In this document: in pieces, positions 1,593 through 30,192 of the stretch
How positions within the stretch are numbered: the stretch's first letter is position 1
How the letters are laid out: each line of letters starts with the position of its first letter
NCBI GenBank assembly: GCA_005191425.1
Contig: SUPR01000001.1
Location: 30,001-62,000, forward strand
Length of the DNA: 32,000 nucleotides
DNA from: Candidatus Helarchaeota ASGARD archaeon Hel_GB_B
Lineage (GTDB): Archaea > Asgardarchaeota > Lokiarchaeia > Helarchaeales > HEL-GB-B
Direction of reading: 5' to 3'
Notes under the pieces: model-generated
Database searches by the model: none
Seen by the model: the letters and a program-made list of their open reading frames with translations, nothing else
What the model was told of the DNA's origin: nothing
Program-made: the position numbers and the translations under genes

Positions 1593-4500
1593 TTGGCACA
1601 AGTTGAAGTTATCACGAAAGATGTTATAATAGATGTACTGACAAATAACTGGCTAACAAAGCCAGAATTATTTAAAAAACTTCCACCGATAAGAGAACAG
1701 AGTACTGTAAAAGTTATTAATGATTATTTAGATACATTAACCCAAAAAGGAATTGTTACAAAAAAAATAATAAAAGGTAGAATTTGTTTTGGAATTTTTA
1801 AAGAAAAAGGGAACGAACCACATCTTAAACAAACAAAATTGGACCAAATAATGCCTAAAGACCGGCAAATTAAAAAGACGGAGTCAAGAGTAAAAATAGG
1901 AAAAACTGTTTACACAAAAACAGTACCAAAGACAAAAGTAACTAAATCCAATAAAAAGACTTCAAATAAAATAAAAAAATCTGTGGATAATACTCAACTT
2001 AAAACTAAAAAAGAAAAAGGTACACCGAAAACAGATTCGATTGAAAAAAAGGACAATATTAAAAAAGAATCTATCAAAAAAAAGGAAACTCCAGCTAAAT
2101 CTGACCTAAAAAATAGACCAGACCAAAAGCCAAATTTACCAATTAAATCCAAATCTAAATCTGAAAGTAAATCAAAAGCCGCAACTGATATTAAATCAGA
2201 TCAAGGAGCAGAATCACATCCAAAATCTAAAGAAACTCAAAAACCTGAATTTAAAGAAAAAACCGAATTATCAAATATAATAGAAAAGGAGAAAATAAAA
2301 GTTAGCCACAAATATAAAAGACGAAAAATTAATAAATCAGGAATTTTACCGACACGAGAATATGTCATGAGCAAAAAAGAAGAAGTTGGTACAGATAGAG
2401 CTTATCAACAACTTTCTCCCGCTGAATTTTTTAAGAAGAATAAAGCAATTGCAGGTTTTGATAATGATCAAAAGGCAGTTTATACAACAATTAGAGAATT
2501 AGTTGAAAATTCTATTGATGCAGCTGAAGCAATCGAAAAGCCCCCAGATATTTTTATAAAAATGGAGTCGCTTCCGAATAATAGATATAAGATTACAATC
2601 CGTGATAATGGCTCAGGGGTACCTGATGAAGAGATCCCAAAATGTTTTGGTATATTATTATATGGATCTAAATATATAAGAAAACAAGGAAGAGGTGCAT
2701 TTGGTTTTGGAGGTAAGATGGCAATATTATATGGACAGATATCAACATTAGAACCTGTCGAAATAAAAAGTTCTACTAATGGAAAAGAAATTTATTATTA
2801 CAAAATGAGGATTGATATAAAAAATAATGAACCGATAATTGAAGAATATAAAGTAATACCAAATTCGGATAATTGGACAGGAACAGAAATATCATTTAAA
2901 TTTAAAGGAGATTATCCTAGAGTACGAAAAAAAGTATTAGAATACTTAAATAAAACTGCAATTATCACACCTCATGCAGAAATCGAATATATTGAACCAA
3001 TAGATGAGCGATGTGAAAAATGTAGATCAGATAGAGTTGAAACTCTTGGAGATGTGATATACTGTAAAAAATGTAGTAATAAATTTATTCATAATATAAA
3101 TATTAATGATAATTTTACTTTAAAAAAGATATTTCAAAATAAAATCGGTGGAATTGATAAAGACCTCTTTAACAAAATAAAATTGGATTTGTCGGATATT
3201 TTAGACGCTGAAATTGATAAACTCAGTAATTTAAGAGAAATATATAATAAAATTGAAGATATTTATGGAAGTCCAATAGGAATAACCAAGGATAATTTAA
3301 TTAATAAAATTTTTAAATTAATTTTAAAAGGAATTAAGAACTTTACAATTATTTCTAAGAAATATAAGAATATTTCAGAAATAGATGTTACTACAAAAAA
3401 AGAAATAATAGAATTAATTGAAAATATAAATAATTTGTTTAAATATGTGGGTGGAAAGTCATTCCCAATTACAAGTTTAACACCCGCAAATATTAAAACA
3501 AAATTAGAACATGAAAAAAAATTTCTAACTAGAGCAAAAAATTTTGATGCTTTTCTTTTAGATATAATTTCAGGACTTGGAAAAAAGACATTAAAAAAGG
3601 TAGAGGATGAATATGGAGAAAATTTAAAAATAGATATTTTCGAAGCAGAATCTAAAATTGATATGAATAAATTATATAAAATATTATATAAAAATCTTAC
3701 ATCTGGATTAATAAACATTAAAGATTTGACATTTGAACAATTCAAACAACTTATAGAAGAAGTAAAAAAAGAAAAAATTAAATATATCTCTAAATTAAAA
3801 GATGGAGTCCTTGAATATATCAGAAAAGATGCGTTTCTATCTCAGAAAGAGCCCTATAAATTTATAAATAATTCAGTGGAAAAATGTCCATATTGTAATT
3901 CATCAGATATAATACAAATTGGGGACTGGAGGCAATGTCAAGTAAGTTCATGCAAGCATAATTATTTAAATATTTATAGACACATTTATAGAAGAGGTAC
4001 TACAGAATTACCGCCAAACCCGACTGCCAGTCTTCCGCATCCGCACGGAATTGATGCAGATACATTATTAGAAATGATTAAAGCAGAATTAAGCGAATTT
4101 TATATCACCTATGAACCTATAGGTAATTATTCTATGCAAAAACTATTAAGAAAAAATATTAAAGGAATTGGAAAAGAAACACTCAATAAGATTGAAGAAT
4201 TAACGCCCGAATCCCTTGAGAAAGATGCCGATAAATTTAGAAATGTTAATCAATTGTATAAGGCAATTGAAAAAGCAGTGGGACATCCAATAGGAAAAGT
4301 TGAGGGTAAAAAAACAGTTTACAACATTAATAATTTAAAATTTGAAGAATTTAAAGAAATTATTAACAATGAACTTTCAAATAATACTAATTTAGACTCT
4401 ATTTTGAAAAAGTTATTTTCAAGATTGCGGGTTAAAATCTTAAATGAAATTAAAAAAGAATTAGATATACAAATCGACCAACAGATTCCTTCAAATATTG

Positions 4501-5639
4501 ATTTAGAAAAGTTATACAAATTATTATTAAAAAAACTCCCTAAAACCAATTCAATTAATGTAAAAGAATTAACTCTTGAAAAATTAAAACAATTAATCGA
4601 AAATGTCAAAAAAGATAAACATGAAGAGTTTAGGAAAGCAAGCCCAAATTTTTATTCATTTATGAATAAGAGATTTCAGAGGACCGGGAAAAAAACAATT
4701 AATAATTTCTGTGAATTTGCGCGGCAAAATTCAACATTAAAGCTTTATCCAGAAACTTTACTAATGGACCTAGATAAAGATGCCATAGTTAAAATCACGG
4801 ATTTACTTCAAAAATTTCCATTTATGAGGCCAGATGCTAGTTGTTTGGCTCCTATAGGAGAACAATTGCTTTTAAAAGGAATTATGAAGGAGATGAACCC
4901 TGAATGGGCTAGTACAGTCCAAAGACCACCTGAAGTTTGTGAAGGACATCCATTTATAATTGAGATGGGACTTGCTTATGGAGGAAAAATAGATTCTTCG
5001 GGTGATTATTTACAAAGATTTGCTAACCGTATTCCATTACTTTATGAATCAAGTATGGGTGTTTGTGCTACTGCAATTAAAAAAATCAATTGGAGACATT
5101 ATAAATTAGATTTAGATAAAATGCCAATACATATTTTTATTCACATAGTATCTACGAAAATACCGTGGGGACGCTTTGGCAAGGAATATATTGCAAATAA
5201 ACCAGAAATTAGGTCAGAAATAGAAAAAGGGATCAAATACTTAGCGGGACAACTCCGTACTTATTTGAGTAAAATTAGAAAAAAGGAATCTATTAAAAAG
5301 AAAGTTTTTAAATTGAAAATTTTTGGCCGCGCATTAATAGAGCCTTTAGCAGAATTAGTTGAAGCAGATCCATCGATCATCGTTAGAATAATATATAATT
5401 ATATTATAAGTAAAAGACCAAAAAAAGAAAAAAGTAAAAATCTGTATAAGAATTTTTCAAACTTTTTTGATGATTTAAGTCTTTTTGATAAATTAGATTT
5501 AGAATATCTGAAATTACTGGTTAAAGAAAAAAGTAAGAATCCATTTAAGAATTTCTTAAATTTTTTTGATAACTTTAATTATATAAACTTATTAATTAAA
5601 CTAAAAATAAATGATCAAGATGTCGACCAAAAGAGTTAG
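1593..5639 (+). CDS. top6B: DNA topoisomerase VI subunit B with large N-terminal extension and two internal insertions
   Basis: LSPAEFF, GHKL motifs RELVENSIDA / DNGSG / GRGAFGFGG, PHPHG, transducer RFANRIPLLY, NWRHY and GKEYIA; directly upstream of top6A. The conserved core begins near the ATG at 2367 (aa 259), an alternative start. Confidence 0.95.
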   Translation: MAQVEVITKDVIIDVLTNNWLTKPELFKKLPPIREQSTVKVINDYLDTLTQKGIVTKKIIKGRICFGIFKEKGNEPHLKQTKLDQIMPKDRQIKKTESRVKIGKTVYTKTVPKTKVTKSNKKTSNKIKKSVDNTQLKTKKEKGTPKTDSIEKKDNIKKESIKKKETPAKSDLKNRPDQKPNLPIKSKSKSESKSKAATDIKSDQGAESHPKSKETQKPEFKEKTELSNIIEKEKIKVSHKYKRRKINKSGILPTREYVMSKKEEVGTDRAYQQLSPAEFFKKNKAIAGFDNDQKAVYTTIRELVENSIDAAEAIEKPPDIFIKMESLPNNRYKITIRDNGSGVPDEEIPKCFGILLYGSKYIRKQGRGAFGFGGKMAILYGQISTLEPVEIKSSTNGKEIYYYKMRIDIKNNEPIIEEYKVIPNSDNWTGTEISFKFKGDYPRVRKKVLEYLNKTAIITPHAEIEYIEPIDERCEKCRSDRVETLGDVIYCKKCSNKFIHNININDNFTLKKIFQNKIGGIDKDLFNKIKLDLSDILDAEIDKLSNLREIYNKIEDIYGSPIGITKDNLINKIFKLILKGIKNFTIISKKYKNISEIDVTTKKEIIELIENINNLFKYVGGKSFPITSLTPANIKTKLEHEKKFLTRAKNFDAFLLDIISGLGKKTLKKVEDEYGENLKIDIFEAESKIDMNKLYKILYKNLTSGLINIKDLTFEQFKQLIEEVKKEKIKYISKLKDGVLEYIRKDAFLSQKEPYKFINNSVEKCPYCNSSDIIQIGDWRQCQVSSCKHNYLNIYRHIYRRGTTELPPNPTASLPHPHGIDADTLLEMIKAELSEFYITYEPIGNYSMQKLLRKNIKGIGKETLNKIEELTPESLEKDADKFRNVNQLYKAIEKAVGHPIGKVEGKKTVYNINNLKFEEFKEIINNELSNNTNLDSILKKLFSRLRVKILNEIKKELDIQIDQQIPSNIDLEKLYKLLLKKLPKTNSINVKELTLEKLKQLIENVKKDKHEEFRKASPNFYSFMNKRFQRTGKKTINNFCEFARQNSTLKLYPETLLMDLDKDAIVKITDLLQKFPFMRPDASCLAPIGEQLLLKGIMKEMNPEWASTVQRPPEVCEGHPFIIEMGLAYGGKIDSSGDYLQRFANRIPLLYESSMGVCATAIKKINWRHYKLDLDKMPIHIFIHIVSTKIPWGRFGKEYIANKPEIRSEIEKGIKYLAGQLRTYLSKIRKKESIKKKVFKLKIFGRALIEPLAELVEADPSIIVRIIYNYIISKRPKKEKSKNLYKNFSNFFDDLSLFDKLDLEYLKLLVKEKSKNPFKNFLNFFDNFNYINLLIKLKINDQDVDQKS
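3111..4820 (+). repeat. Five H2TH-like repeat units within Top6B, starting at about 3111, 3540, 4125, 4389 and 4647
   Basis: NFTLKKIFQNKIGGIDKDLFNKI...IYNKIEDIYGSPIG aligns with NYSMQKLLRKNIKGIGKETLNKI...LYKAIEKAVGHPIG. IDMNKLYKILYKNL-TSGLINIKDLTFEQFKQLIEEVKKEK aligns with IDLEKLYKLLLKKLPKTNSINVKELTLEKLKQLIENVKKDK (840 nt apart). Confidence 0.8.
5424..5609 (+). repeat. Diverged 99-nt (33-aa) tandem duplication in the Top6B C-terminal tail
   Basis: KEKSKNLYKNFSNFFDDL (5424) and KEKSKNPFKNFLNFFDNF (5523); also visible at DNA level (aaagaaaaaagtaa.aat......aagaattt). Confidence 0.8.
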
Positions 5640-6843
5640 AAGTAGTAGTAAAAAGTCTACTGTAAAAAAGAAAACTACTAAAAATTCCAATAAAAAATTG
5701 ACTAGTAAAAAAGAGGTTGAAAAAGAAAAAAAGAAGGAAATTTCAGAAGAATCATTAATTGTTATAGAAAATATTGATTTTTATGCAAATCAAATTTTAA
5801 AAGGATTTATTAATGGTAATCCAACCATAGAAATTCCAATTAGAGGAAAATCAAATGTTGAATATGATGAAGAGAGGGGGATTATTAAAGTATTAGATAA
5901 ATCAAAAGTTTCTGAACGATCTTTTCAAAATATTGCACATACAAAAAAATTTATGCAGTACATTATGGTCTTGAATTTTTGTAAAAAATTATTGAAGACA
6001 AACTCGACTTCTGATTTAAGAGATTTATATTATAGTTTAAAGAGAAAAATACCAGGGACAAGAAATAAAACATTTGATTCACAAGAAGAATCAAATCCAA
6101 TTATTGAAGATATAGAAGTAGCTATGGACATATGGAGAGAACGATTACATATTTCTGCAGATCCAAAGGGGTACATCGTTGGTGATATTATTTTTACTCA
6201 AAAATTAAAAAATAAAGACCAAAGAATTGATTGTAATGAGATGGGTACCGGTTGGGGAATTCCGAGTAATGTAGAAAGGGACATTTTAGAAATAGAAAAT
6301 GTAAATGCAAAATATTTATTGGCTATTGAATCTGCAGGAATGTACAGCAGACTGGTTGAGGAAAATTTTCATGAAAATAATAAGTGTATATTAATTGCAT
6401 TAAAAGGCCAAGCAAGTAGAGGGACTAGAAGATTAATAAATCGGATTGCTTATGAAAAGAATATACCAGTTTATGTATTCGTAGATGGAGATCCATGGGG
6501 TTTTTATATTTATTCAGTGCTTAAATTCGGTAGTATGTCGTTATCTTTTATAGGGAGTAAACTGGCTACACCTAAAGCAAAATTTATTGGAATGACGATG
6601 GAGGATATAAGCGACTATAAGTTAGAAGATTCAACTCATCCGTTAAGTAAAGTAGACATTAAAAGAATAGATGACCTATTGGATTTACCATGGTTCCAAA
6701 ATGATGAATGGCAAACTGAACTAAAATTGATGAAAAAAATTCAAAAACGTATCGAACAACAGGCGCTTGCATCAAGGTCGTTAGATTTTGTAGCCACGAC
6801 TTATTTACCTGAAAAAATTAAAAATAAGAAATTTTTACCTTAA
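5611..6843 (+). CDS. top6A: DNA topoisomerase VI subunit A (Spo11 family)
   Basis: Catalytic region LRDLYY, TOPRIM motifs AIESAG and VFVDGDPWG, C-terminal IEQQAL. Overlaps the top6B stop; alternative start ATG 5620. Lys/Ser-rich N-terminal tail of about 45 aa. Confidence 0.96.
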   Translation: MIKMSTKRVRSSSKKSTVKKKTTKNSNKKLTSKKEVEKEKKKEISEESLIVIENIDFYANQILKGFINGNPTIEIPIRGKSNVEYDEERGIIKVLDKSKVSERSFQNIAHTKKFMQYIMVLNFCKKLLKTNSTSDLRDLYYSLKRKIPGTRNKTFDSQEESNPIIEDIEVAMDIWRERLHISADPKGYIVGDIIFTQKLKNKDQRIDCNEMGTGWGIPSNVERDILEIENVNAKYLLAIESAGMYSRLVEENFHENNKCILIALKGQASRGTRRLINRIAYEKNIPVYVFVDGDPWGFYIYSVLKFGSMSLSFIGSKLATPKAKFIGMTMEDISDYKLEDSTHPLSKVDIKRIDDLLDLPWFQNDEWQTELKLMKKIQKRIEQQALASRSLDFVATTYLPEKIKNKKFLP

Positions 6844-11153: not shown

Positions 11154-11918
11154 ATGTTACATTCATTTCATGTTATTGAGAAAATAAGTGGAAGATCAAT
11201 TTTTTCTAAATTATTTAAAGAGTTATTGATAGATCCAGCACTATTAAGTGGGTTTCTTTCAGCTATGAATTCATTTGCAATGAGTGAATTAGCAGATAAG
11301 GGAATTGAAAATATTGATATGAAAAATATTCGTTGGGTTTATATTGATGATAAAGATTTATTATTTATTATTGGCGCAGATAAAGAAGATGAAGCAGAAA
11401 TGCTAAAGAACCAACTAAAAGTCCTCAAGGATTCTTTTATTGAGTTTTTTTACATCAAGGATGGGTTCAGTAATATCAACTGGGATGGTAATACAACTAT
11501 TTTCCAAGATTTTGAGCCTGTTTTGGAGGAAAATGTTAAGAGCTGGGAAGAAGCTAAAAAAGTAAAAAATGCAGCAGCATTAATGGACTTGCTAGATATT
11601 TATCAAAATTTATTTGCTAAGCTTGCATTATTTCCAGAAGCAAAACCACTTGATTTAGAAAATATCGATATCATGGAAATGGCATTTGATGAACAAAATG
11701 CATCATGGAACGTCCATAAATTAGCTAAATTAGATGAACAAGATTTAAGAGCGAAACTTAAGGACGTAATCAGTAAATTTGTAATAATTTTGCAAAAAAC
11801 TGCAAAAGATTATTATACCAAAATCAAGACCTTTGTTTTTCCATACATTAGAGAAGATTGGCAACGAATTAAAGATGCTAAAATGGACGAAGATATAATT
11901 AATTTATTCTTAACTTAG
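11154..11918 (+). CDS. Longin-like domain protein with helical C-terminal region (Asgard-type)
   Basis: N-terminal beta-beta-alpha pattern with SGRSIF and DPALLSGFLSAMNSFA, characteristic of Asgard longin-fold proteins. Confidence 0.7.
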   Translation: MLHSFHVIEKISGRSIFSKLFKELLIDPALLSGFLSAMNSFAMSELADKGIENIDMKNIRWVYIDDKDLLFIIGADKEDEAEMLKNQLKVLKDSFIEFFYIKDGFSNINWDGNTTIFQDFEPVLEENVKSWEEAKKVKNAAALMDLLDIYQNLFAKLALFPEAKPLDLENIDIMEMAFDEQNASWNVHKLAKLDEQDLRAKLKDVISKFVIILQKTAKDYYTKIKTFVFPYIREDWQRIKDAKMDEDIINLFLT

Positions 11919-21546: not shown

Positions 21547-22458
21547 TTATTTATTAAAAAAATTTAATATTTCAGTTGCACCACTTTTTAATGCAAGCCC
21601 TGCTAATTGAGTAGAGGAATTAGGGCCAATTTGAGTTATTATTAAAAATCCGCTTTTTTTGTTAGGAATTTTTACTGGCATTAAAATTAATTTGCCTCGT
21701 TCACCATCAATTGTTGAGAAGGTCTTACCAATATTAAAAGCATCGCCCACAGAATTTGCAGACAATGCCACTGTTGATGCAATTAATGAACCAATATTGA
21801 CATCAATTTCATGTGGAAAAGTCGAGAATAAAACACGCCCCTCAGTGGTAGAAATTAATGCAGCTATTGCTCCAGCTTTTGTTTTTATAGTTTCCATGAT
21901 TTTATTTAGAGCTTTCATTGTTTCTTCATCATATAAAGGGACATTTTCTTTAGGTCCAATTAAAAATTTGCACATTTTATCTCCTTTGGCAATACATTCA
22001 GTTTCATTTATCTCAACTTCAGAATCGAATAATACACTAGCCATACCTTTTAATATTCCTTGAATACCAAAACATGATGCTATTCCTTCTTCGTAAGCTT
22101 CAGGGGAGTTTTGAATCTCAATATATATTTTTTTATTATCTTCATCTATATTTATATTCCCCAATGTTGCACCCCAGCCTCCTCGTTCTAAGCTTCTTAA
22201 GATAAACCTAAACGCGGTATTTTTATCTGCTTTTTTCTTATCTATAACAAGTTCCATAAATCTTTTACCAATATCTTCTCCAATTTTAATATAAATTGGC
22301 CGAAGACCCTCTTTTAAAAATTTATTTGCAGTGAGATACATCTGTCTAAAATGTTCAATATGAAGTATAATTATTCTGAAATTGAAGCCTTTAATTTCTC
22401 CTTTAAAAATAGAAAAATCTTTGAAAGTAAAATTTTTAGTCTCTTCTAACAAGCCCAT
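21547..22458 (-). CDS. V4R domain - roadblock/LC7 fusion protein
   Basis: V4R: GGWG, GILKG, ETECIAKGDKMCKF. Roadblock: AALISTTEGRVL, IDGERGKLILMP, terminal helix. AGGTG upstream. Confidence 0.8.
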   Translation of the reverse strand: MGLLEETKNFTFKDFSIFKGEIKGFNFRIIILHIEHFRQMYLTANKFLKEGLRPIYIKIGEDIGKRFMELVIDKKKADKNTAFRFILRSLERGGWGATLGNINIDEDNKKIYIEIQNSPEAYEEGIASCFGIQGILKGMASVLFDSEVEINETECIAKGDKMCKFLIGPKENVPLYDEETMKALNKIMETIKTKAGAIAALISTTEGRVLFSTFPHEIDVNIGSLIASTVALSANSVGDAFNIGKTFSTIDGERGKLILMPVKIPNKKSGFLIITQIGPNSSTQLAGLALKSGATEILNFFNK

Positions 22459-22521: not shown

Positions 22522-25500
22522 TTAAACTCTTGTAATTTTGGTAGATGAAGCCATCCAAATGGGTCCAATTATTTCGTGAATTAACGCTACCAAAGTTTCT
22601 TGTTGAGATACTAATGCAGTTAATTGTGTTAGGTCGTATTTTTCAGAATATGGTGCAATTAATACTTCTTCACCGTCTCTACCAACTGCAAATAGGTTCA
22701 TCTCAGGTCTTTGCCTTATTTGTACATTTCCTAATTCTAGCAACTCTCTAACCTGGTCTTTTGCTTCGTTCAAGATACGAGATGCAACAATTATTCTTAT
22801 TCTTCGACTAGCGGATTTAATAGTTTCTAGAGGCAGGTCACTAAAATCAGGAGCTACAATAGATACAGTTGATTTTGTTCTCATAAGAATGTCCCGGATA
22901 TATTCTTTTATTGCCTCAACACCTACTAATGGCCAAGTAAGTTCGCCGGATTTCGCTAGTATATTAGTAGTTTCCTGCCATACTGCTCTTAGAAGTTGAC
23001 TTACTTTTAAGGTTTCACCTTCAGCTTCTCTGAATGTAAATGCCGCATCTTTATTAGTGTTTGTAAGTCGCTCTGTTAATATAGAATCGGTTTCATCTAA
23101 TTTTGCAGCTAATTTTTCATTTAATGAATTTGCGTTTGATTCATAGTCAGTTTGGTGTTGGCTAGCTAATTGTAGTAAATCAGTTTCTAGTTTTGCAGCA
23201 TCTGCTTGGAATCCTGCGGCATGGTTGGAAATTGTTTCTTTACATTCCTCATAAGTTTTGGTAGTCAATTCTTTAATTTGTGCTAAATATTTATTATCAA
23301 TTTCGTTTATATCGTTTTTTATTTGTGAAAATCCTTCATTCATAGTATTAGATATTTGCTCTTGGACATCATTTGCCATTTTATTAACTCGTTCGTTATC
23401 ATTGTTGACAAAATCTTTAATAGTATTTTTCATTTGATTTAATGCTTCGTGGCCACGGTTTTTAACATCATCTACTCGTTTAATTTCGGTCTGTACTATA
23501 TTTGCGACATCATCTTTTTTCTCGTCTATCGATTTATTCATATTAGCTGTTATTTCATCTAATTCTCCTAACTTATTATCATCAATTTCTTGAAGATTTT
23601 TCTTATGCTCCTGGATTATATTTGCAAGCAATGAAATAGATTTATTACGAATTTCATGTGATTGTGATTCAACATTACCTACTCTTAAGTCTAATGCTTT
23701 ATAAAATTCATCACGCATTGAATCAAGTTCGTTTTGATATTCTTTGATTCTATCATCTAGAGTATCAGAAAGAACTTGCTCCAATTTACTTGTATCTTCT
23801 TGTAAAAGTTTATTTTGGCCGGAAATCTTGGATAAAAATTCGTCTTTCAATTTATTTAGTAAGTCGCTGTATCTTTTTATGACATCATCTGATTTACTAA
23901 CTATCGAGTCCTTCATTTTGTAAAAATCTAATTCTATTGCTTCTACTTGAGAATTAATTATTTCTTGAGACTGGTCACCATATTTAGAAGCATTATCCTT
24001 GAACCAATTTAAGTTATTATTATTATATTTGTCAAAAACAGCAGATACATTTTCCTTTTTAGTATTTATCGATGAAATTTCGGAACTGATAATATCAGCA
24101 AGATTTTCAGTAGTATCGTTTGACCATTTGTCTAAAGATTCATTTACCTTATCTTGATAGTCTTTAATATTTACTTCTAACTCTTTAACTAAATTTTTTG
24201 ATGTTTCATTTATGGTATTAATTAATTGTTCATTAGCCCCGCGTTCTTCCTTAATTTTTTCATTTAATTTTCTAATAGCATTATCAATAATTTCCTTAAT
24301 TTCAGGTCTGTCTTTACTATATTCTTTTAATTCATTTTCCAGTTCTTTTTCCCAGTCACGGAGATTATGAATTGTTTTTGTTATTTCCCCTGATGAAACA
24401 TTTTTAATTGAGTCGACCTTGGTCTGAATTTCGTCATGTAAAGTTTTCGATAAAGATTTTATCTTATTTTTTTCTTCAGATTTCAGATTTTTAATTGAAT
24501 TATTTGCTTTTGATTTTAAATCATCCAAATTTTTGTTTAAATTAGAAATACTTGCATCTAATTCTTGATTGAATTCACTCCTTGCGGAATTTATTTCATC
24601 TGTTAATTGAGCTAAACGCTCGTCTAAATTCGAAGTTAATGTTTTTTCCAAATCAGTTGACCCGGCTTGAAGCCTTTTAATTTGACTTGTAAATTTGTCA
24701 AGAAATTCCTGTTGTATATCACCAACTAATTGCTTGAACCTTGAAATTAAATCATTTGTAAAATTTGCTACATCATTTGTAAATTGATAGAATTCGGTAT
24801 CTCGTTTAGTAATTTCATTATTAAACAATTTTTCAGCAGTTTCACGAAAATTGCTGGCTCTATTTTTAAACCATTCCATATGATTATTTTGTGAATTTTG
24901 AATTTCAGACCTTAATTCCTTATCTTTTTCCCAAGTAGCTTCAATTTCCTTTTTTATCATTTCTAAGAATTCGTCTGATAAATTTTTATGCCATTCATCA
25001 TAGGCAGTGTAATTTTGATTGCGATTACTATTAATAATATCATTTACTCCTTTGACATATTCGACCATTATTCGATCAGTGAATTCATCAAATACGCCAT
25101 CAATGCGAGTATTAAGTAGATTTAATCCTTCTACATTTTCGGCAGAGACTTTATCGAGAATTTCATTGCCGTAATTGTCCAAGACATTATCAATATTATT
25201 ATTTAAATTATTTAATTCATTTTTATGTTCATCGGCTGTAGTATCATGTATATTTTTAGTTTTTTGCATTAATTCATTATATCTATTTTCCAGGTCATTA
25301 GCCAAAGTGTCTTCATATTCATGAATTAATTTATTGTGGTCATCATTACGCTGATTAAAATTGTTAGTTATCTCTTCTTTTCTCGATTCCACATCAGAAT
25401 TTAATTTTATTACTTGATTTGTAATTAAATTAGAAATTCCATCTCTAGCATTAATTGTATCTTTGGCAAATTGTTCTAATTGAGTATTTATAGCCTCTGC

Positions 25501-25893
25501 TACTTGATCTTTAAGAGTTATGACCTCTTGCTTTAAGTCATTAATATGTTTATTAATGTTAGAATCGAAATCCTCTCGTTGTTTGATAGTTTTTTCTCTA
25601 TATTGATCCAAAAATTGAGTAAAGGCAGAATAAGGGACGACTGGCATATATCTATTTATATCTTTAGCTGCTGAACCTATTGCAACAGCAAGGTTATTAT
25701 CTAAAAATTTTTGTATTGTATTTCTCGCTTCTTCCATTGAGATATTTGCCAATGCCGCTAAAGATGATTCAGTTATATATCCTTTTGCATATAATGCGAC
25801 AAAGGCTCTTGCTTCAGCTTCTGTTAATGTAACACCTCGTTCTTTAAAAGTATCTATAATTATTTGAAACATATTTTGGTTTTGTACACTCAT
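22522..25893 (-). CDS. TrmB-like wHTH + ~880-aa helical rod + TrmB/PLD-like C-terminal domain
   Basis: N-terminus GVTLTEAEARAFVALYAKG...RYMPVVP is TrmB-HTH-like. The C-terminus from aa ~983 (G..AIKEYIRDIL.RTKSTVSIVAP...RDGEEVLIAP) is TrmB effector-domain-like with no HKD motif. The middle is helical with hendecad periodicity. GGAGG at 25903-25907. Confidence 0.75.
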   Translation of the reverse strand: MSVQNQNMFQIIIDTFKERGVTLTEAEARAFVALYAKGYITESSLAALANISMEEARNTIQKFLDNNLAVAIGSAAKDINRYMPVVPYSAFTQFLDQYREKTIKQREDFDSNINKHINDLKQEVITLKDQVAEAINTQLEQFAKDTINARDGISNLITNQVIKLNSDVESRKEEITNNFNQRNDDHNKLIHEYEDTLANDLENRYNELMQKTKNIHDTTADEHKNELNNLNNNIDNVLDNYGNEILDKVSAENVEGLNLLNTRIDGVFDEFTDRIMVEYVKGVNDIINSNRNQNYTAYDEWHKNLSDEFLEMIKKEIEATWEKDKELRSEIQNSQNNHMEWFKNRASNFRETAEKLFNNEITKRDTEFYQFTNDVANFTNDLISRFKQLVGDIQQEFLDKFTSQIKRLQAGSTDLEKTLTSNLDERLAQLTDEINSARSEFNQELDASISNLNKNLDDLKSKANNSIKNLKSEEKNKIKSLSKTLHDEIQTKVDSIKNVSSGEITKTIHNLRDWEKELENELKEYSKDRPEIKEIIDNAIRKLNEKIKEERGANEQLINTINETSKNLVKELEVNIKDYQDKVNESLDKWSNDTTENLADIISSEISSINTKKENVSAVFDKYNNNNLNWFKDNASKYGDQSQEIINSQVEAIELDFYKMKDSIVSKSDDVIKRYSDLLNKLKDEFLSKISGQNKLLQEDTSKLEQVLSDTLDDRIKEYQNELDSMRDEFYKALDLRVGNVESQSHEIRNKSISLLANIIQEHKKNLQEIDDNKLGELDEITANMNKSIDEKKDDVANIVQTEIKRVDDVKNRGHEALNQMKNTIKDFVNNDNERVNKMANDVQEQISNTMNEGFSQIKNDINEIDNKYLAQIKELTTKTYEECKETISNHAAGFQADAAKLETDLLQLASQHQTDYESNANSLNEKLAAKLDETDSILTERLTNTNKDAAFTFREAEGETLKVSQLLRAVWQETTNILAKSGELTWPLVGVEAIKEYIRDILMRTKSTVSIVAPDFSDLPLETIKSASRRIRIIVASRILNEAKDQVRELLELGNVQIRQRPEMNLFAVGRDGEEVLIAPYSEKYDLTQLTALVSQQETLVALIHEIIGPIWMASSTKITRV
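23685..25000 (-). repeat. Internal duplication of about 150 aa with a 289-aa offset in the rod protein
   Basis: Gap-free match NNHMEWFKNRAS...EFY...EFLDKF...LEKTLTSNLDERL vs NNNLNWFKDNAS...DFY...EFLSKI...LEQVLSDTLDDRI; the Trp codons lie at 24871 and 24004. Confidence 0.8.
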
Positions 25894-25907: not shown

Positions 25908-27791
25908 TTATGAACTACCTCCTTCTATGGCTACTTTTGTTCTATTTAACTTTTCTACAAAATCAGCCAACCCTAAATTTTGGAATTTTTGAATGGAATC
26001 CTCCAAAATGTCCTTGGCTTTATCTACTTGCCCTTGAATTGCATATACATTTGATAAGTTAGTATAAAATTGCCATGCATAAAAATATTCATTATTTGAA
26101 AAGAATGTCTTTGCTGCTTTTGTTAGTACATTTATTACTTCATTTGTGGCATTTATTTCTTCGAAATACTTTTTAGCTTGAGTATAGTTTGCTCTGGCTA
26201 ATGGATATGCCTTGTCCTTAATGCAATCTTCGGCTTTTTCGACAAATAAATTAGCCAATTTATTTATTAATTCTTTCACTTTTTCGGGTTCTCCTAAGCT
26301 TCTATTTACATCAATTGCATTAATGAGGACATCCCTGCCATAATCTAATAACCCTTTTTCGAGGAACTTTTCTGTAAAACTTTCCAAAATATTTGCGGCT
26401 TTTTCTTTTTCATTAACTTTTACGAGACTATCCCCTGCAAGTAATATAAACTTAAAAACTTCATTATAATATCCATAATTATAATAATTCATAGCTATAT
26501 CATAATAACCATTTGCGATATGCTCAACTGCAGATACCAGTCCCGCTGTTAGAGAATCAGATCTTAGACGTTCTAATTCTTCGAATTGAAAATCTTCCAA
26601 TAATCTTCCATTTTCAGCCAAATTCATTGCAACTTTAATTAGACCTCTTGCTTGCGCATCTACTGCAATATCACCCAAACTACTTCGTAAATAAATCCAA
26701 AAACTGTCTAATGTAATATAATAAACACTATCTTCTTTACTCAAATATTTTCCAATCATTTTTTCAAGTATTGGTTTGATATCTTCACTTTTTGCGCCAA
26801 TCGAACGAGCTATTATATCAATATCTGCAAAATTTGCATTTTCCATTGCAAATGACTGTAATATTTTTCTTTCGTCCTCAGTTAATTCTTTAAGTTCTCG
26901 TCCAAAACCTTCTTTAACTCCGCCTTCAGCTTTAAACCATACATCTTTACCTAGTTCTCTTGTATCGCCTCTATTTTCATACAACCATCCGCCATTATAA
27001 ACTAAATAAAGAGGAATTCCACCACTATGTCTTAATAAATTCTCTTTTATCTCTTCACTAAATTTAATTCCTGCTGCATCTGCTCTTTTATCAAGTAATT
27101 CTATTGCATCAGCATTATTTAAAGTTGGTAAACCTATTTCGTGAAAATCCTCTAATACATAACGAACTTTTGGATAATACTTTTCCCAAACAGACATCAA
27201 AAAGAGAACAGGGAGGTTTGGATTTTTTACATCCGTTTTTATAGCGTCTACTATTGCTTTTAATACATCAAATGCATTGTCATGATTTAATATTATAAAT
27301 CTTTCAACAAGATTAGAAACAATTAGAATACCTTTTTTATTGAATTTATTACCTTGAATATTTTTAATAATTTTAGGTAATTTTTTAACAATTTTTTTCA
27401 AAAAAGAATCAATATACTTACTCATATCAGGGATTTCATAGCTGCTTTTTAAAAGCGGAGCTTTTTTACCTGGTTTTGTAATAGGTTTCTTTTTGTCCAC
27501 GGGTTTCGTTATTTCATCTAATTCATTGCTTATTACATCGAAATAACCTTCAATATTTATCAATGGTACATCATATCTAATTACCAGAAAACCATTTGAT
27601 GAAGCTATGGACTCGATTTGTTTTAAAAAACTTCTTCTACCAATTCCTTCGCGTCCATGTAATATTAAGCCATGTGAAATATTTTCTCGGTCAGCTATTT
27701 TTTGCAAAATTCCTGAAAATTGATCTATTTCTCTTTTTCTTCCCACAAAGAATTTCGCTGGGCATGTTTCTAATTTAAATGGGTCCGTCAT
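25908..27791 (-). CDS. STAND/AAA-like P-loop domain (degenerate) + wHTH + TPR/SNAP-like helical repeats
   Basis: DPF...FVGRKREI, hhhHGREGIGRRS at the Walker A position, SGGIPLYL, wHTH from aa ~303 (LTEDERKIL), and repeated A...Y..A...F helices at the C-terminus. Confidence 0.75.
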   Translation of the reverse strand: MTDPFKLETCPAKFFVGRKREIDQFSGILQKIADRENISHGLILHGREGIGRRSFLKQIESIASSNGFLVIRYDVPLINIEGYFDVISNELDEITKPVDKKKPITKPGKKAPLLKSSYEIPDMSKYIDSFLKKIVKKLPKIIKNIQGNKFNKKGILIVSNLVERFIILNHDNAFDVLKAIVDAIKTDVKNPNLPVLFLMSVWEKYYPKVRYVLEDFHEIGLPTLNNADAIELLDKRADAAGIKFSEEIKENLLRHSGGIPLYLVYNGGWLYENRGDTRELGKDVWFKAEGGVKEGFGRELKELTEDERKILQSFAMENANFADIDIIARSIGAKSEDIKPILEKMIGKYLSKEDSVYYITLDSFWIYLRSSLGDIAVDAQARGLIKVAMNLAENGRLLEDFQFEELERLRSDSLTAGLVSAVEHIANGYYDIAMNYYNYGYYNEVFKFILLAGDSLVKVNEKEKAANILESFTEKFLEKGLLDYGRDVLINAIDVNRSLGEPEKVKELINKLANLFVEKAEDCIKDKAYPLARANYTQAKKYFEEINATNEVINVLTKAAKTFFSNNEYFYAWQFYTNLSNVYAIQGQVDKAKDILEDSIQKFQNLGLADFVEKLNRTKVAIEGGSS

Positions 27792-28327: not shown

Positions 28328-28996
28328 TTAAAAAAAGGTGTTAATGAAAGAAATTATCGAATAACCATTGAATTGGAGATATACTTCAATAATTGAGATT
28401 ATTAATATGATAAGAAGAAAAATGTAATTATTAAAAATTCGCCAAATCCGATCATTTGTATAAATTATTTCACTATTTTTTGGATTTTTAATATTTAAAA
28501 TTTTACATAAACCCATTCCTAAGAATAATCCCGAAAATATACTTATAATCGCAAATAAGGCATCTTCAGAATAATCAAATATACCTACTAAAAACCGGTA
28601 ATTCACTATTAGGTCAAATAAAACTAACATTATAATTAATGTACAGACTCCAGAAATGATTACTGCTATAATAGAATTTTTTGATAATTGGATTATAGGT
28701 TGCACCATAAAAACTATGCAAATTAAAATTAATAGAATGTACGGAATGAATTCATAATATTGAGCAAAAATTAACGGTACACCTAATGATATTGTAGAAA
28801 TTATATCCAATATAGTAAAAAATAAAAACATTTCACCTGCTAAAAAATAAAATAAAGACCCCCAGCTTAATTTTGGTTTTTCATCTGATTTTAGACCCCA
28901 GAAATTAAAACTACTAATAACTTTCGGTATAAAAAATAAAATTATCCCAAATAAATAATAAGAAATTCTTAAATCAATCATTTTTACAATCTCCAT
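28328..28996 (-). CDS. Polytopic membrane protein (about 6 TM), unknown function
   Basis: Six hydrophobic segments; start overlaps the stop of the phosphatase gene. Confidence 0.65.
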   Translation of the reverse strand: MEIVKMIDLRISYYLFGIILFFIPKVISSFNFWGLKSDEKPKLSWGSLFYFLAGEMFLFFTILDIISTISLGVPLIFAQYYEFIPYILLILICIVFMVQPIIQLSKNSIIAVIISGVCTLIIMLVLFDLIVNYRFLVGIFDYSEDALFAIISIFSGLFLGMGLCKILNIKNPKNSEIIYTNDRIWRIFNNYIFLLIILIISIIEVYLQFNGYSIISFINTFF

Positions 28997-30192
28997 GGGT
29001 TTGTTTGGTTTAATGTTAAACTATCAAATATAACACCATTTTGATCAATTGCATGTATTGTTAATCGGGTATTATTTATTTCAACATGACAAAACTCGTA
29101 AACTGACCTAATTATCGCAGAATTTGGGTGAGTATTATAAGCCATAGCTTCTAACTCTGCTCCGCCACCACCTGTAATTATATAATGAGTCCCATTTACA
29201 TTCAGTCTCTCGTAATAATGAATATGTCCATTGAATACAACATCCACTTTATAACGTTCTAATAATGGAATAATTTCTTGTACCACTTTATATTTCCCTG
29301 CAGATGCATAAGCAGGATAATGCCAGTACCCAATTATCCAATTTATATTTTTACTTGCATTTGCTTTAAATAATGTTTCATTCAACCAATCTAGTTCAGC
29401 TTGGCTAATTCCGTTTCTATTAATATAAGTTTCGGTATTTATATCAAGAGCAAAAAAACAAGTATTACTATAATTGAAAGCATAATAAAAATCATTATGA
29501 GTATAATTCATAAAATATTCAAACCTATGACCATAATCAGGTGCATATTCAATAGTTTCATGGTTACCAATTGAGCACATATAAGGGTGAGTGCTTGCAT
29601 AATCATTAATATCTATGCTATCAAAAAAGCGCTGCCAGTGGTCCTCTCGATTTGGAGCTAAGACAATATCTCCAATATTTAAAATAAAATTTGGATTTGT
29701 TTCTATCATTTTTTTCATGATAATTCTCTGAGCAGAATACCCAAAAAAATCAGGCCTTGTATCTCCTACCACATTAAATGAAAAAACAGGTTTATTTGAT
29801 GACGGTGCAGTCCTAAATTTATAATCTTTATTCATATAATATAAATTACATTCACTGCTATTAATTTTATAATGATATTCTGTGTCCGGCTTTAAAGATG
29901 TAATATTAAAATGATGAATTCTTACAGCTACGGGGTCACTTATGTTAAGGTCTAAATAACTAGAATTTTTTCCCAAAAATACAGTTGTTATACATTTTTT
30001 CGGGGTTTGAAATGATATCCCAATAGCACTAGAAGCATTTCCAGTAACAATTGAAAGATACGGAGCTTTTTCATAATAATTATTATTAACCCCAAAATTA
30101 AAATCTCCTGAAAATATTACCAACATAAATGCCCCATATATAATAATAAATAAAAAGATTTTCGCGAGAATTTTTTTACCCATTTTTCTCAA
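28984..30192 (-). CDS. Membrane-anchored purple acid phosphatase-like metallophosphoesterase with FN3-like domain
   Basis: N-terminal TM helix, LKPDTEYHYKI, and metal motifs GDTR, GDIV, GNHE, HYP, GHIH. Alternative start ATG 30183. Confidence 0.85.
   Translation of the reverse strand: MRKMGKKILAKIFLFIIIYGAFMLVIFSGDFNFGVNNNYYEKAPYLSIVTGNASSAIGISFQTPKKCITTVFLGKNSSYLDLNISDPVAVRIHHFNITSLKPDTEYHYKINSSECNLYYMNKDYKFRTAPSSNKPVFSFNVVGDTRPDFFGYSAQRIIMKKMIETNPNFILNIGDIVLAPNREDHWQRFFDSIDINDYASTHPYMCSIGNHETIEYAPDYGHRFEYFMNYTHNDFYYAFNYSNTCFFALDINTETYINRNGISQAELDWLNETLFKANASKNINWIIGYWHYPAYASAGKYKVVQEIIPLLERYKVDVVFNGHIHYYERLNVNGTHYIITGGGGAELEAMAYNTHPNSAIIRSVYEFCHVEINNTRLTIHAIDQNGVIFDSLTLNQTNPWRL

Follow-up and report, generated by a model that had tools for sequence, protein, structure and literature searches.

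A predicted long rod protein with TrmB/TrmBL2-type terminal domains in Candidatus Helarchaeota archaeon Hel_GB_B

The 32,000-nucleotide (nt) stretch of DNA described here (the window) belongs to Candidatus Helarchaeota archaeon Hel_GB_B (contig SUPR01000001.1, positions 30,001 to 62,000), has a G+C content of approximately 28% and bears on its minus strand a gene (P0001) for a protein of 1123 amino acids (aa), in which head and tail domains of the TrmB/TrmBL2 type are predicted at either end of a rod of about 890 residues. The gene is intact, its frame being uninterrupted across positions 22522-25893, and the sequence GGAGG is found 8 nt 5′ of its ATG. On a modest balance of probability, the product is a TrmB/TrmBL2-derived rod with two antiparallel arms that serves as a scaffold of defined length. 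The features of the gene are as follows.

22522-25893, minus strand: whole rod gene (P0001), a single open frame; product of 1123 aa, 129 kDa, isoelectric point (pI) 4.87
25633-25893, minus strand: head, aa 1-87, predicted TrmB-type winged helix with conserved wing motif R81-Y82...P87
25099-25632, minus strand: rod helix H1, aa 88-265 (178 aa), with constant hendecad phase
25075-25098, minus strand: break 1, aa 266-273; helix break in the AlphaFold2 (AF2) model, register shift and hot spot (258-286) for insertions/deletions (indels) in orthologues
24319-25074, minus strand: rod helix H2, aa 274-525 (252 aa)
24298-24318, minus strand: centre, aa 526-532, loop of ~7 residues with P530; candidate hairpin tip or antiparallel-dimer dyad
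23539-24297, minus strand: rod helix H3, aa 533-785 (253 aa)
23524-23538, minus strand: break 3, aa 786-790, mirroring break 1 (270 + 788 = 1058); indel hot spot 786-814
22957-23523, minus strand: rod helix H4, aa 791-979 (189 aa)
22525-22956, minus strand: tail, aa 980-1123, predicted TrmBL2/TrmB-type phospholipase D (PLD)-fold domain without HKD motif and without sugar-binding barrel
24451-24888, minus strand: internal repeat copy 1, aa 336-481, from BLASTP/BLOSUM self-comparison
23584-24021, minus strand: internal repeat copy 2, aa 625-770, at offset 289 with 27% identity

Periodicity and internal duplication of the rod

The original prediction, made from the letters of the DNA, described a TrmB scaffold stretched by a hendecad-type rod of 22-residue periodicity with hydrophobic residues at positions 1, 5, 8, 12 and 19, and this agrees well with the counts. 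Over aa 91-245 these positions are hydrophobic in 88, 86, 86, 57 and 86% of the repeats, respectively, and self-similarity reaches z-scores of 10 at offset 22, 9.2 at offset 44 and 7.8 at offset 11. The hydrophobic power of aa 101-985 peaks at 3.66 residues (11/3) with a value of 8.5, compared with a mean shuffle maximum of 1.3; the same period is present within aa 113-244 and in every 200-residue segment of the rod proper, and the core spacing is 4-4-3-4-3-4. The register of this hendecad holds unchanged through aa ~91-240, ~278-497 and ~545-930 and shifts at ~245-275 and ~498-545, so that a hendecad-type period is retained but a single continuous hendecad is not.

The 892 residues of the rod contain one proline (P530) and 17 glycines, and carry a net charge of -55, with -1 each for head and tail. 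The apolar face is approximately 100 degrees wide and large hydrophobics make up 27% of the residues, features which are suggestive of a coiled coil. An internal duplication at an offset of 289 aa, also noted in the original prediction, is both real and old: the ungapped BLOSUM score is 278 (aa 280-481 against 569-770), where shuffles reach at most 73, and BLASTP aligns aa 336-481 with aa 625-770 without gaps at 27% identity (E-value 5e-24). The rod may be pictured as the amphipathic linker helix of a TrmBL2-like protein, some 30 residues long, which would have been expanded to ~890 residues, partly via this duplication, giving an almost unbroken helix with one narrow hydrophobic stripe of 11/3 periodicity.

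Amphipathic helices with 11/3 periodicity are known from apolipoproteins, perilipins and synuclein, and a lipid-binding helix of the apolipoprotein type had been raised as one reading of the repeats. It is very unlikely, in our estimation, that the rod is such a lipid-surface helix, coating membranes or protrusions with its TrmB domains acting as adaptors. While an 11/3 periodicity with 22-mers is typical of helices of this kind, and while the Pfam Apolipoprotein family (PF01442) matches at an E-value of 1e-16 with apolipoproteins A-IV and E among the weak matches in the Protein Data Bank (PDB), the Pfam score of 61.6 bits is under the cut-off of 90. The rod has the amphipathic periodicity of 11/22 residues in common with apolipoproteins A-I, A-IV and E, but unlike these its 22-mers are not punctuated by prolines, it displays no class-A charge pattern and its apolar face is narrow, with no Lys/Arg flanks. 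The opposite face is acidic and polar, which would repel anionic membranes, and a lipid helix would leave the mirror symmetry of the rod (see below) without explanation. The tail of ZorA from the anti-phage Zorya system (NCBIfam) also matched under its cut-off (29.3 bits against 250), with the match confined to the rod; both it and the Apolipoprotein match are read here as probable look-alikes due to periodicity.

Mirror symmetry and arrangement of the arms

Secondary structure from the full-length AF2 model consists of four helices of 178, 252, 253 and 189 aa, with breaks at aa 266-273, 526-532 and 786-790. The midpoints of these breaks (270, 529 and 788) are symmetric about aa ~529, and the register shifts at ~245-275 and ~498-545 are evidence independent of the model. 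Indels of more than 4 aa in eight orthologues all fall at 258-286 or 786-814, and smaller ones cluster at 518-553. Three orthologues have lost 8 aa at 271-278 and 7 aa at 786-792, and a fourth has lost 20 aa in 258-286 and 18 aa in 787-814, the paired indels being matched in size across the centre of the rod. When detrended conservation was compared with its own mirror image, the best axis was found at i + j = 1062 (r 0.48), ranking first of 501 axes at the coarse scale. For family members with rods of the 1084 and 1254 length classes, no other of the 501 axes scores better than the mirror axis at any of the three scales, its distance from the rod midpoint sum being 3-15, and for the class of 716 it agrees at two scales. 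A proline is present at the computed rod midpoint in 11 of 81 family members, all of which lie outside the P0001 orthologue group, compared with 3.6 expected (p 0.0008); proline makes up 2.5% of the centre bin versus 0.37% elsewhere, approximately six standard deviations above the rest.

In the dimer of TrmB, according to a review of the TrmB family, the linker helices pair through F81/I91′ and F84/L88′ to form an antiparallel, domain-swapped coiled coil (PMC4158304). Because the breaks, the paired indels and the conservation of the rod are symmetric about aa ~529, and because this TrmB coiled coil is antiparallel, we infer the same geometry for the rod. It would possess two length-matched arms (aa 88-525 and aa 533-979), each interrupted once at 259 residues from the centre, and the first arm would pair with the second in antiparallel fashion like the short linker helices of TrmB. 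This could be realized in two forms. In the first, the chain would fold back as a hairpin ~65 nm long that has a joint ~38 nm away from the tip, so that head and tail of one chain meet as a TrmBL2-like base; in the second, two chains would pair antiparallel as a domain-swapped dimer ~130 nm long, either end of which carries a head-tail pair. Sequence fits either form alike, which itself counts against the explanation, and for P0001 we lean slightly towards the hairpin because of the central proline/glycine loop.

If the hairpin is correct, the protein would resemble the arms of SMC, Rad50 and MukB, which likewise are long intramolecular antiparallel coiled coils with matched interruptions (the elbow) and globular domains at the base. 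Unlike these, the rod protein has a hendecad rather than a heptad repeat and lacks an ABC ATPase head, a hinge and a zinc hook, and there is no sequence or fold match between them; no SMC/Rad50-like ABC ATPase head, hinge or zinc hook was matched in Pfam, NCBIfam or the PDB.

Several further observations weigh against antiparallel arms. The paired indels may stem from two independent events alone, and the mirrored-conservation signal is not independent of these indels. The conservation peak drops to ranks 28 and 91 of 501 at finer scales, and a direct offset of 178 yields an r similar to that of the mirror axis. The midpoint proline occurs in a minority of family members only, glycine is not enriched at the rod midpoint of the same 81 members, mirrored pairs of prolines are not enriched in the family (15 observed, 15 expected) and P530 itself is absent in four of the eight orthologues. 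In addition, the full-length AF2 model is poor (predicted local distance difference test (pLDDT) 56.5, predicted template modelling score (pTM) 0.31). A Foldseek search with this low-confidence model gave weak TrmBL2 matches (E-value 6.5e-3) and none for the rod. The complex prediction for head plus H1 (aa 1-265) against H4 plus tail (aa 791-1123) scored 0.24 against a mark of 0.32 and is not used either way.

The original prediction had envisaged a rod that would exceed 100 nm if fully extended, with putative roles as filament, tether or DNA-membrane bridge. A single rod of this kind, holding head and tail apart at its two ends, is not supported in view of the symmetry about aa ~529 and of the antiparallel TrmB linker. 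Its dimeric version, a parallel homodimer extended over ~130 nm with the heads at one end and the tails at the other, acting as a DNA-to-structure tether or bridge, is considered unlikely. In its favour are a near-continuous helix with a single proline in 892 residues, a rod of conserved length and a hydrophobic stripe that is single and narrow, which would be equally suitable for two parallel strands in a coiled coil; however, the coiled coil of the parent TrmB linker is antiparallel, and a parallel rod does not explain why breaks, indels and conservation should show mirror symmetry or why prolines should be enriched at the exact midpoint.

The three breaks and the four helix lengths could also be accommodated by a four-helix bundle of ~27-37 nm, folded at all three breaks as a zig-zag of H1-H2-H3-H4 or as a hairpin folded at its joint, which would bring the matched indels of breaks 1 and 3 together at one end. 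The protein would in that case be a bulky but ordinary TrmB-type regulator or chromatin protein, TrmBL2 being its nearest solved relative. We regard this as improbable: the stripe of ~100 degrees, with about one residue per turn, is narrow for a four-helix core, H1 and H4 are ~65-70 residues shorter than H2 and H3, and an ordinary regulator is at odds with the acidic recognition helix, the missing Tyr50 of TrmB and the net charge of the rod.

Head and tail domains and the putative function

That both ends of the protein are of the TrmB type, as the original prediction held, finds support in family profiles, in the AF2 fold of the tail and in the Foldseek matches of the latter. With the head alone the signal is weak; Pfam TrmB (PF01978) aligns with residues 23-75 at an E-value of 0.0018 and 18.5 bits (cut-off 25.6), and phmmer finds TrmBL2 (5bpd) at an E-value of 0.003. 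It becomes clear from family profiles, with a profile of six orthologue heads retrieving TrmBL2 at 8e-4 and with 93 of 103 family heads matching PF01978 (best E-value 1e-13), from which an N-terminal TrmB-type winged helix-turn-helix is predicted with confidence.

The recognition helix (aa ~52-64, including SMEEARNTIQ) had been noted as not very basic and is in fact acidic, with E54 and E55. Tyr50 and Asp51, given as the DNA-reading residues of TrmB in PMC4158304, fall on R57 and N58 of the rod protein in the TrmBL2 alignment. Among the 103 family heads, Glu predominates in the recognition helix and the R-Y...P wing motif is retained; the Tyr50 column is mostly Glu, and Tyr is not among its seven commonest residues. 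As the recognition helix is acidic family-wide and the protein has a pI of 4.87, DNA binding is doubtful. These two features and the conserved rod length make a simple sequence-specific repressor unlikely, in keeping with what was first supposed.

At the C-terminus, Regulator_TrmB (PF11495) matches the rod protein alone at an E-value of 0.0066, over profile positions 6-132 of 233, and matches 37 of 110 family tails. A profile of the 110 tails found FAM83B (E-value 0.004) and TrmB 3qph (0.006), with TrmBL2 and TrmB 2f5t non-significant at 0.08-0.15, and a profile of orthologue tails found no PDB relative at sequence level. The AF2 model of aa 950-1123 has a pLDDT of 90.5, and Foldseek places TrmBL2 first among its matches (E-value 1e-10), then TrmB 2f5t (query TM-score (TMq) 0.65, root-mean-square deviation (rmsd) 2.7), followed by the PLD-fold proteins F13, FAM83, NucT, Nuc and Zucchini. 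From this model the tail is taken to be the first PLD-fold subdomain of the TrmB effector domain. The PLD motif HxK(x)4D is absent as read by motif spacing, N1066 and F1068 being at the His and Lys positions with D1073 kept, an Asp that hardly varies among family members. The chain stops at aa 1123, right after the PLD-fold domain; the sugar-binding β-barrel subdomain of TrmB is absent, so that head and tail are of the TrmBL2-like kind.

Among the closest known systems is TrmBL2 (TK0471/PF0496; 5bpd, 5bpi, 5bqt, 5box), which is both the best sequence match of the head (E-value 8e-4) and the best fold match of the tail (1e-10). Like the rod protein, it has a winged helix, an amphipathic linker and a PLD-fold domain without barrel. 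However, TrmBL2 is 264 aa in length with a linker of ~30 residues, whereas that of the rod protein has ~890 residues with an 11/3 period and is ~30 times longer; the rod protein further differs in having R57/N58 for Tyr50/Asp51, an acidic recognition helix and a pI of 4.87, and in being encoded beside an Arch-ATPase/TPR gene. TrmB (Pyrococcus furiosus/T. litoralis; 3qph, 2f5t) corresponds to the rod protein in its head and the first half of its effector domain, and its antiparallel domain-swapped linker is the geometry proposed above. Unlike TrmB, the rod protein has no sugar-binding barrel, lacks the sugar-sensing logic and possesses a giant rod. TrmBL2 of Thermococcales is described as a chromatin protein (PMC4158304), and as a roadblock for Smc-ScpAB in connection with a 2025 paper (PMC11840125).

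Regarding function, the favoured antiparallel rod would act as a spacer or scaffold of defined length whose base module docks on a partner. This partner could be DNA, or else a protein in view of the acidity of the recognition helix.

Family and distribution in Asgard archaea

The closest homologues of the rod protein are hypothetical proteins from metagenome-assembled genomes of Helarchaeota and Lokiarchaeota with 74-80% identity, each of exactly 1123 aa, rod length being fixed with zero indels at this level of identity. More remote homologues have 39-47% identity and 1070-1110 aa. A profile search over 1.8 billion cluster representatives returned 254 clusters at an E-value below 1e-10, nearly all of them long proteins that carry the tail domain C-terminally. 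A rod period of 3.65-3.68 is present in all 89 full-length members analysed, with rod lengths from 344 to 1693 aa and exact length classes of 716, 870, 892, 1084, 1254 and 1546.

Judged from the names of the clusters looked up and from ESM Atlas taxa, the family appears restricted to Asgard archaea. Cluster members with an organism name are all Asgard (Hel-, Loki-, Atabey-, Frey-, Sigyn- and Hodarchaeota and Promethearchaeota), one member being labelled only as marine sediment metagenome, and long look-alikes in the ESM Atlas come without exception from Promethearchaeota, the short TrmB-like ones being from other archaea and bacteria. At least one match (E-value below 1e-8) was found in 147 of the 151 Asgard genomes searched, with one to six per genome in open reading frames (ORFs) of up to 2092 aa. 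Hel_GB_B itself has six, in ORFs of 1130, 1250, 866, 448, 388 and 336 aa. In its three short paralogues (448, 388 and 336 aa; contigs C83, C118 and C181) a TrmBL2-like C-terminal domain lies behind a Lys/Glu-rich helical N-terminal region and the winged-helix head is absent.

Two candidate findings were discarded. In-frame stops within family matches of other Asgard genomes proved to be the genes' own stop codons, and short tail-domain matches, considered as short TrmB relatives, were in those cases read either fragments or preceded by helical rod sequence. Literature searches found no paper on these giant proteins, and from its profile matches the rod protein appears to belong to a large undescribed family with members in almost all of the Asgard genomes searched.

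No known prokaryotes are more closely related to eukaryotes than the Asgard archaea, and how Asgard cells are built is still an open question. With a TrmBL2-like chromatin scaffold apparently turned into rods of tens to hundreds of nanometres, conserved in length and present as several paralogues per genome, the family suggests a structural system that has not been studied, possibly one of spacers, struts or nucleoid organisers. We would give little weight, though some, to a bolder view in which these are Asgard-specific intracellular rulers or tethers, the dimerisation helix of a chromatin protein having been stretched to straight hendecad rods of fixed length (~25-250 nm), with several lengths per cell. 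P0001 would then be a strut, either bipolar or folded back on itself, and a STAND-type ATPase together with a roadblock/V4R sensor would control how it assembles. Were this true, they would in principle be a prokaryotic forerunner of the long coiled-coil scaffolds of eukaryotes that organise chromatin or membranes. For coiled-coil structural biology, the family is also useful as a large natural collection of hendecad (11/3) helices of great length. Its proteins are putatively soluble and cytoplasmic, and the predicted lengths of 65 and 130 nm would be distinguishable by electron microscopy.

Neighbouring genes

The rod gene is flanked by two genes on the same strand that may be functionally associated with it. 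Their positions, and those of the orthologues of the first gene in which Walker A was compared, are as follows.

25908-27791, minus strand: upstream partner gene, 627 aa, AAA_16/Arch-ATPase-like N-terminus and SNAP/TPR-like repeats; stop 14 nt before the ATG of the rod gene
21547-22458, minus strand: downstream gene, 303 aa, V4R and roadblock/LC7 Pfam domains
L001:6108-7985, L002:6059-7954 and L004:1193-3076: partner-gene orthologues

The Pfam matches of the upstream partner are sub-threshold only (AAA_16 at the N-terminus, SNAP/TPR at the C-terminus). In each of the four orthologue contexts, down to 39% identity, the partner ATPase gene is found directly 5′ of the rod gene. The V4R-roadblock gene, separated from the rod gene in the window by a 63-nt spacer with T-runs, adjoins it or is two genes off in the same four contexts, with the homologue in context L004 having 26% identity (E-value 5e-23). 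Four distant family members have unrelated neighbours and the ATPase pairing does not extend to them; the module is therefore specific to the P0001 orthologue group. Our best guess is that the rod has a scaffold role with the products of these adjacent genes, in which it would work together with the Arch-ATPase/TPR protein, co-transcribed with it, and with the V4R-roadblock protein encoded nearby.

Walker A of the partner reads GREGIGRRS in Hel_GB_B and in an 80%-identical relative, its closest, with Lys replaced by Arg, and the two distant partner orthologues, of 39-42% identity, retain GRPGIGK[TS]S. The partner ATPase may have turned non-catalytic in the Hel_GB_B lineage only. In context L001, two further roadblock genes are located upstream of the ATPase gene.

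Upstream of the module in the window there is a gene for a purple-acid-phosphatase-like metallophosphoesterase (28984-30192, minus strand). A Metallophos gene is also present close to P0021 (L005), a distant member of the family; this may be a coincidence. Elsewhere in the window, a 254-aa protein (11154-11918, plus strand) has a weak longin-like match (Fuz_longin_1, E-value 9e-4, under the cut-off). The window also has a gene for the topoisomerase VI B subunit (1593-5639, plus strand), the product of which has 1348 aa. Its GHKL ATPase (aa 292-413) is separated from its transducer (aa 1080-1237) by over 600 unassigned residues, and ~290 are N-terminal to the ATPase. The gene for topoisomerase VI A (5611-6843) comes next.

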